A DNA stretch of 64,000 bases from Eledone cirrhosa (lineage: Eukaryota), in NCBI GenBank assembly GCA_964016885.1, contig OZ024753.1:5642001-5706000 (forward strand), written 5' to 3'. The translations under genes were made by a program, and so were the position numbers. The notes beneath the pieces were generated by a model that was given only the letters and a program-made list of their open reading frames with translations, had not been told where the DNA came from and ran no database searches. This document shows positions 38,325 to 38,518 of this stretch, piece by piece (positions within the stretch are counted from its first letter, which is position 1; each line of letters starts with the position of its first letter).

Positions 38325-38516
38325 ATAGGGACAAGTAAGACCCCGACGGCTGAGCTCAAGCCGTTTCGACGGCTAATTCTGGACTGAATTAGCCGTCGAA
38401 ACGGCTTGAGCTCAGCCGTCGGGGTCTTACTTGTCCCTATTACCCACTCTACTACCCTAAGTATTGAGTACTTTGGTGCGTTATGGTCCACCTGGTTCCT
38501 TACCACATTTCCTTCG

Positions 38517-38518
<2 letters not shown>
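38325..38518. mobile_element. (TA)n-embedded fold-back element D with hammerhead 3' half
   Basis: Perfect arms 38325-38379 and 38386-38440 with a 6-nt loop; GAAAcggct-tgagctc-agccGTC. Confidence 0.85.

Follow-up and report, generated by a model that had tools for sequence, protein, structure and literature searches.

A 190-base hairpin insertion (hereafter referred to as element D) lies between two TA repeats in the stretch of DNA analysed here, a GenBank window of 64,000 nucleotides from contig OZ024753.1 of Eledone cirrhosa (hereafter the window). I propose, with a probability of roughly 0.65, that D is a 5'-truncated Penelope-like insertion whose reverse transcription was primed on both strands of a (TA)n array after nicking, and that the products were joined through a short inverted repeat native to the element, and not through stem II of its hammerhead ribozyme. 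Membership of D in the Penelope-like group is likely, with an ORF and the 5' hammerhead core missing. The supporting layout, with head-to-head arms, a tail on a single arm and (TA)n on either side, is as described for Penelope-like insertions (PMC8557442), and the native loop orientation and short native apex stem were found in two sequencing studies (P1, runs X1 and X5; P2, run X4). Against this reading, the tail of D is about twice the 30–40 bp usual for Penelope-like elements, and the native apex stem is weak, being AT-rich and 6–7 bp long; one variant retains only 4 bp of it, and a T>A change at 38389 disrupts it. An apex placed on a native self-complementary stretch fits, but does not prove, an origin by folding of a copy on itself.

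The arms of D (Table 1) are perfectly complementary (55/55) around a 6-nt loop, whereas the longest perfect arm in 100 base shuffles of the D region is 9 bp, and the folding z of D is −19.7. The right arm holds GAAAC (38398–38402), GTC (38418–38420) and GGGGTC (38421–38426), and its stem III, of 6 bp, has a palindromic hexamer in the loop. The GAAA core, stem III with its palindromic loop, the NUH site and the 3' strand of stem I are all present, but a scan of the whole window gave no match to CTGAnGA within 38325–38520, so that the hammerhead is only half present in D itself. The initial annotation had described the arms as containing GAAAC, stem III, GTC and GGGGTC with CTGAnGA missing, and the motif positions and the window scan bear this out. 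A hammerhead lacking its 5' half would not be expected to cleave in cis, and D would be a dead-on-arrival copy.

Table 1. Features of element D, its (TA)n surroundings and its relative at 62.5 kb (positions in the window).
Feature	Position	Strand	Basis
(TA)n target array, left	38304–38327	.	sequence
Left arm: inverted copy without tail, stopping at the inner 3' end of the family	38325–38379	−	complementarity; contig ends
6-nt loop: native sequence in antisense reading, hence part of the left arm	38380–38385	−	contig loose ends
Apex region: native 6–7-bp inverted repeat CTAATT/AATTAG, which could prime inversion	38373–38392	.	contigs of X1 and X4
Right arm: 3' end of the element, sense copy	38386–38440	+	complementarity
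Likely 3' strand of hammerhead stem II; likely 5' partner missing from D	38390–38397	+	inferred from loose ends behind 38389 (1 X4 contig, 5 X5 contigs)
3' half of type I hammerhead: GAAA core, stem III, GUC site, stem I 3' strand	38398–38426	+	sequence; core without variants
One-sided tail, about 80 nt, unpaired, ending at the outer 3' end of the family	38441–38517	+	loose end behind 38507 running into (TA)n (9 X5 contigs)
(TA)n target array, right	38518–38547	.	sequence
Decayed, non-inverted, tail-less relative of D, adjoining (TA)n	62446–62497	−	blastn, nhmmer

The insert contains no ORF, and no reverse transcriptase or GIY-YIG ORF was linked to its family. An Rfam scan with E-values up to 5 gave no hammerhead family among the 150 of 343 matches listed, all of which are microRNA models under their gathering scores; a mir-1286 match on D (E 0.01), likewise below its gathering score, was taken as chance. 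The window is ∼32% GC and rich in microsatellites, with 140 arrays of at least 6 TA units; it contains no tRNA genes, and no long ORFs beyond retroelement fragments and repeats. Broken LINE-type pieces lie at 20584–22603 (−) and 50288–50733 (+), with 395 bp in common at 91% and a weak match to RVT_1 (E 9e-7) that falls just short of the cut-off. Minisatellite arrays at 31436–32070 and 14670–15165 are open in frames of either strand, without Pfam matches above the cut-off. A second small repeat (38546–38590), of which an 89% copy is found at 34265–34309 (−), starts directly behind the right (TA)n of D.

I compared positions 38350–38520 with the contigs of four of the 18 public sequencing runs listed (X1, X4, X5 and X7), leaving out X6, X8 and X9, X10–X15 (fewer than 5 words, or a small share) and the raw-read runs X16–X18. 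X1 and X5 belong to one study (P1), perhaps the source of this assembly, and X4 to a second study (P2) and organism. Matching contigs number 19,703 in X1, 508 in X5, 3 in X4 and 2 in X7. Contig counts are not copy counts, and summed depth was not taken as copy number; still, the numbers in X1 and X5 establish that the family of D is highly repeated in organism A. No RNA run with D sequence is among the 18 listed. A pattern scan of metagenome contigs gave no match to the arm motif of D and one to its tail motif (L001), the latter rejected as a chance 21-letter match within a bacterial transporter-like ORF, and a scan of viral contigs gave none. The PMC8557442 supplement gave no match to four short motifs from D and one of its relatives, though line-wrapped FASTA may hide matches. 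The family may already bear a name in repeat libraries such as Repbase or Dfam.

The contigs, with loose ends cut at 30 letters, reveal the native sequence around the apex. The reverse complement of the D loop precedes 38386 in 117 X1 contigs, 7 X5 contigs and 1 X4 contig, with a consensus agreement of only 0.45–0.54 in X1 and X5, while the only X7 contig entering the right arm from upstream has unrelated sequence at the loop position. The loop is thus native sequence, but contigs entering the right arm carry its reverse complement, which assigns it to the left, antisense arm. Upstream of the native loop, CTAATT (seen in the X4 loose end) can pair with AATTAG behind the loop; the form retaining just 4 bp of this stem is a shorter family variant (1 X4 and 5 X5 contigs), and the T>A variant at 38389 makes up 28% of X1 depth. 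Farther upstream the native sequence is AT-rich and unlike the left arm of D, and therefore only 6–7 of the 12 bp of the apex stem are native. In X1, 33 contigs match the plus strand of D up to 38392, including AATTAG, and then diverge.

The same loose ends bear on the missing half of the hammerhead. The initial annotation had predicted that non-inverted paralogues would read gaccc(c)-CTGAnGA-cggctaatt. CGGCTA does occur upstream, but CTGAnGA was not found in the 30 letters upstream of the loop in non-inverted copies, where it had been predicted. In the shorter variant, CGGCTA stands at the far end of the 30 letters, ∼37 nt ahead of its complement TAGCCG (38390–38395), and by eye the two likely constitute stem II with a long interior; together with the 38389 T>A variant, this pairing could reach 9 bp. 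If CGGCTA is the 5' strand of stem II, CTGAnGA would be expected just beyond the 30 letters. Another hammerhead in the window, at 43255, is also long-spaced, with 36 nt between its cores. The apex stem would overlap the 3' strand of the likely stem II, and so compete with the ribozyme fold instead of being part of it. The core positions 38398–38402 and 38418–38420 have no variant rows among the family contigs.

Two 3' ends recur in the family. At the inner end, behind 38440, 74 X1 and 6 X5 contigs pass into (TA)n, as do 9 X5 contigs at the outer end (∼38520); the left arm of D stops at the former and its tail at the latter. At position 38435, 99.8% of X1 depth differs from D, and the left arm holds the complement of the D letter at 38330. 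Both arms thus share a rare letter, which means that they come from the same template, or that one was copied from the other.

Antisense-to-sense joints are also found in other family copies, and I examined the best-supported 15 of 48. In these, an antisense arm ending at 38372–38389 passes to sense positions 38428–38474, with variable breakpoints. Microhomology in the 15 of 48, measured on the reference, averages 1.9 letters, against 0.69 by chance (P about 1.5e-5), an excess that is suggestive only and may be inflated, the rows being selected; in 13 of the 15, letters may be hidden between the two parts, and inserted letters occur in 30 rows. The sense strand restarts near the inner end in 6 of the 15 listed joints, against ∼3 expected, which is too weak for use. 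Six listed contigs (4 of the 8 listed for X1 and 2 of the 8 for X5) cross the axis of D itself with 10–17 differences, and are probably other copies with the same apex.

A related sequence beside (TA)n at ∼62.5 kb, to which the initial annotation had drawn attention, is indeed present. Its match to D is weak taken alone (blastn 26/33, E 0.03; nhmmer E 0.031), but it retains GAAAC and GTCGGGG. Its stem III has decayed, and comparison with D gave no covariation in this stem, only decay. Its 3' end resembles that of a family variant with a loose end behind 38426 (86 X1 and 10 X5 contigs).

Seven fold-backs in the window were examined, including D, and five of them (D and those at 5.6, 6.5, 16 and 47 kb) have a one-sided extension into (TA)n. 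Complete hammerheads are present in both arms of the fold-backs at 16.3–17.4 kb and 43.0–43.4 kb, giving 4 descriptor matches against 1 in 20 shuffled windows, and their apices lie 141 nt and 67 nt, respectively, upstream of CTGATGA. In the fold-back at 5.66–6.01 kb both arms contain CTGATGA, 47 nt inside the right arm, although the hammerhead descriptor failed. Of these four hammerhead-bearing fold-backs, only D turns inside the ribozyme. The 16-kb element offers a second view of a native apex: a third, non-inverted copy of its apex region at 17370–17418 shows that the turning point coincides with a native stem of 8 bp and its 6-nt loop, and as in D the loop is in antisense reading and comes from the tail-less arm. 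This native stem is AT-rich and only modestly above shuffles (7 and 10 of 200). The location of apices on pre-existing stems is therefore supported in the two testable cases, D and the 16-kb element.

Several of these elements deserve description in their own right. The fold-back at 16338–17418 has arms of ∼500 bp that are 92% identical, include (TA)n and a mixed microsatellite, and both hold intact hammerheads; its 57-nt tail ends in the third copy of the apex region, so that the right side is slightly longer than one unit, as from a tandem or circular template. The sequence at 42974–43400 is a near-perfect palindrome with unique arms of 165 bp, without loop or tail, with (TA)n on both sides and a complete type I hammerhead in each arm, and looks very young. 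An older inverted pair (5661–6095) is 85% identical, with a 54-nt spacer, CTGATGA cores and a one-sided tail of about 86 nt into (TA)n. Inverted pairs flanked by (TA)n also lie at 47655–48000 and 6462–6745; their spacers are ∼75 nt long, both have one-sided extensions, and a complete hammerhead was not found in either, while 58981–59075 is a perfect 38-bp hairpin without (TA)n flanks. Finally, an element of ∼100 bp with CTGACGA occurs in three copies, at 5515–5605 (+), 9590–9690 (−) and 10130–10205 (−), which mostly end at (TA)n; two of these are in direct orientation, ∼540 bp apart.

These observations can be accommodated in a model for the origin of D, in which a (TA)n array would be nicked and synthesis target-primed on each of its strands. 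One cDNA would begin at the inner 3' end (the equivalent of 38440) and stop ∼61–68 nt on, inside the long stem II/loop II. Its last 6–7 bases would then pair with their complement, either on the same strand, as a fold-back, or on a second cDNA begun at the end of the tail. Extension and fill-in would complete the hairpin, the second cDNA providing the tail. Between a fold-back accompanied by a second cDNA and the direct annealing of two cDNAs the balance is nearly even; the rare letter common to both arms and the 43-kb palindrome, which has no loop, tip it slightly towards the fold-back. Self-priming of a cDNA, which the initial annotation had put forward, is consistent with a loop contiguous with the antisense (cDNA-sense) arm and with the rare variant in both arms, but no 80-nt tail could arise by self-priming alone, since the arm serving as template has none. 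Fold-back, cDNA–cDNA annealing and later homogenisation of the arms are inseparable from the sequence alone.

In its original form, the proposal was that the cDNA had copied the entire stem II of the hammerhead, folded on it and self-primed, so that the ribozyme's own stem nucleates inversions. The apex does fall between the places expected for CTGAnGA and GAAA, the paralogues do have CGGCTA upstream, the rare letter is in both arms, and with six listed contigs crossing the axis of D, the site may be reused. However, the orientation of the loop is reversed in the non-inverted copies, and the 12 bp of the apex stem are not native but made by the inversion; what pre-existed is its inner 6–7 bp, which is not stem II. 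Folding on the likely stem II, whose 5' strand CGGCTA lies well upstream of its partner, would leave a loop of ∼37 nt, not 6, and the tail cannot derive from the template arm. Moreover, the other three hammerhead-bearing fold-backs turn outside the ribozyme, at 47, 67 and 141 nt upstream of CTGATGA, and keep both cores intact. I consider this explanation very unlikely, and the ribozyme itself does not appear to be the driver of the inversion. An antisense origin, proposed for rotifer Penelope elements (PMC3846280), in which the 3' end of an antisense transcript folds at a short inverted repeat and primes a head-to-head repeat, is improbable, if somewhat less so. It predicts the same geometry, with the loop contiguous with the antisense arm and identical arms, but requires an antisense RNA ending at the apex and leaves the one-sided tail and the fixed inner end unexplained, and the in vitro work reported in PMC11167929 has target-primed initiation on sense RNA.

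About equally improbable is an origin in host repair or replication after insertion, through a break in the fragile (TA)n, resection and fold-back of a 3' overhang at an inverted repeat, or through later homogenisation of the arms. Inverted duplications arising from self-annealed 3' overhangs are described where L1 has inserted (10.1101/2024.12.14.628481), microsatellite stretches form part of the arms of the 16-kb element, and the rare letter in both arms of D would be explained. Nevertheless, the left arm of D ends at the inner 3' end of its family and not at random, and the five of seven fold-backs with a one-sided extension into (TA)n follow the known Penelope pattern. An assembly or library artefact is scarcely credible: none of the listed contigs spans all of D, but 11 of 11 sampled words of 38380–38518 occur in three runs of one sample, which is possibly the assembly source and hence no independent check; moreover, the axis of D recurs in other contigs, and its arm stops at an end specific to the family. 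A MITE or fold-back DNA transposon is at odds with the 80-nt one-sided tail, the non-inverted copies and the variable junctions. I retain as likely the reading of D as a Penelope-like insertion primed from both target strands and joined at a native inverted repeat.

I suggest, as a tentative and rather doubtful generalisation for Penelope-like inversions, that the cDNA begun at the inner site stalls and folds sharply back on whichever short inverted repeat it has just copied, while priming at the outer site gives the tail, the short stem within the hammerhead loop II of this family being a recurrent hotspot. If this rule is true, the tail-less arm would always own the loop, and a very abundant family would offer thousands of natural test junctions. 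D alone is an ordinary dead copy, yet it carries, as does the 16-kb element, a readable signature, namely a loop on the tail-less arm and an apex on a native stem; counted genome-wide, it could help to tell fold-back from the annealing of two cDNAs, and both from self-priming on antisense RNA.

In L1 twin priming, two primers on opposite target strands are extended and the products joined through microhomology, giving 5' inversions. The two opposite-strand primers and the microhomology would be shared by the origin proposed for D, but L1 segments do not overlap, whereas the arms of D duplicate 55 bp. The non-LTR retrozymes (10.64898/2026.07.22.740005) are, like D, non-coding, hammerhead-bearing and Penelope-related, but D is not tandem, consisting of a single inverted pair, and has no complete hammerhead. 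The minimal type I hammerheads of pLTRs are described as having a long helix II and a palindromic loop III, and as occurring in opposite-strand pairs 100–700 bp apart (PMC4209133).

The architecture of D and the self-priming idea are already published. Penelope-like insertions are described with an inverted, 5'-truncated copy immediately 5' of the pLTR, a one-sided 30–40-bp tail and (TA)n targeting, the origin of their tandem and inverted insertions being named an open task (PMC8557442), and palindromes at inverted Penelope junctions have been read as self-priming on an antisense template (PMC3846280). In a literature search that covered few subscription journals, no paper was found that places the apices of Penelope inversions on native stems at base level. 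D shares with the endonuclease-positive elements of these reports the head-to-head inversion, the tail at one end, a type I hammerhead motif near the 3' end and the (TA)n flanks, and differs in having no ORF, a tail of about 80 nt instead of 30–40, and a halved hammerhead. With the self-priming model of PMC3846280 it shares the palindrome at the inverted junction, but that model relies on antisense RNA as the template, and in D the tail on a single arm and the pair of fixed 3' ends point to two target-primed cDNAs. The Poseidon protein of Anolis is reported to nick and extend both target strands in vitro, starting at two RNA sites that bound the tail, and hammerhead cleavage is described as unneeded for insertion (PMC11167929). 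On the reading proposed here, D would resemble this system in its two initiation sites bounding the tail, its AT-rich target and the extension of both strands. D has the Penelope features of a head-to-head inverted copy, a one-sided tail bounded by two 3' ends that are common across copies, and a (TA)n target.
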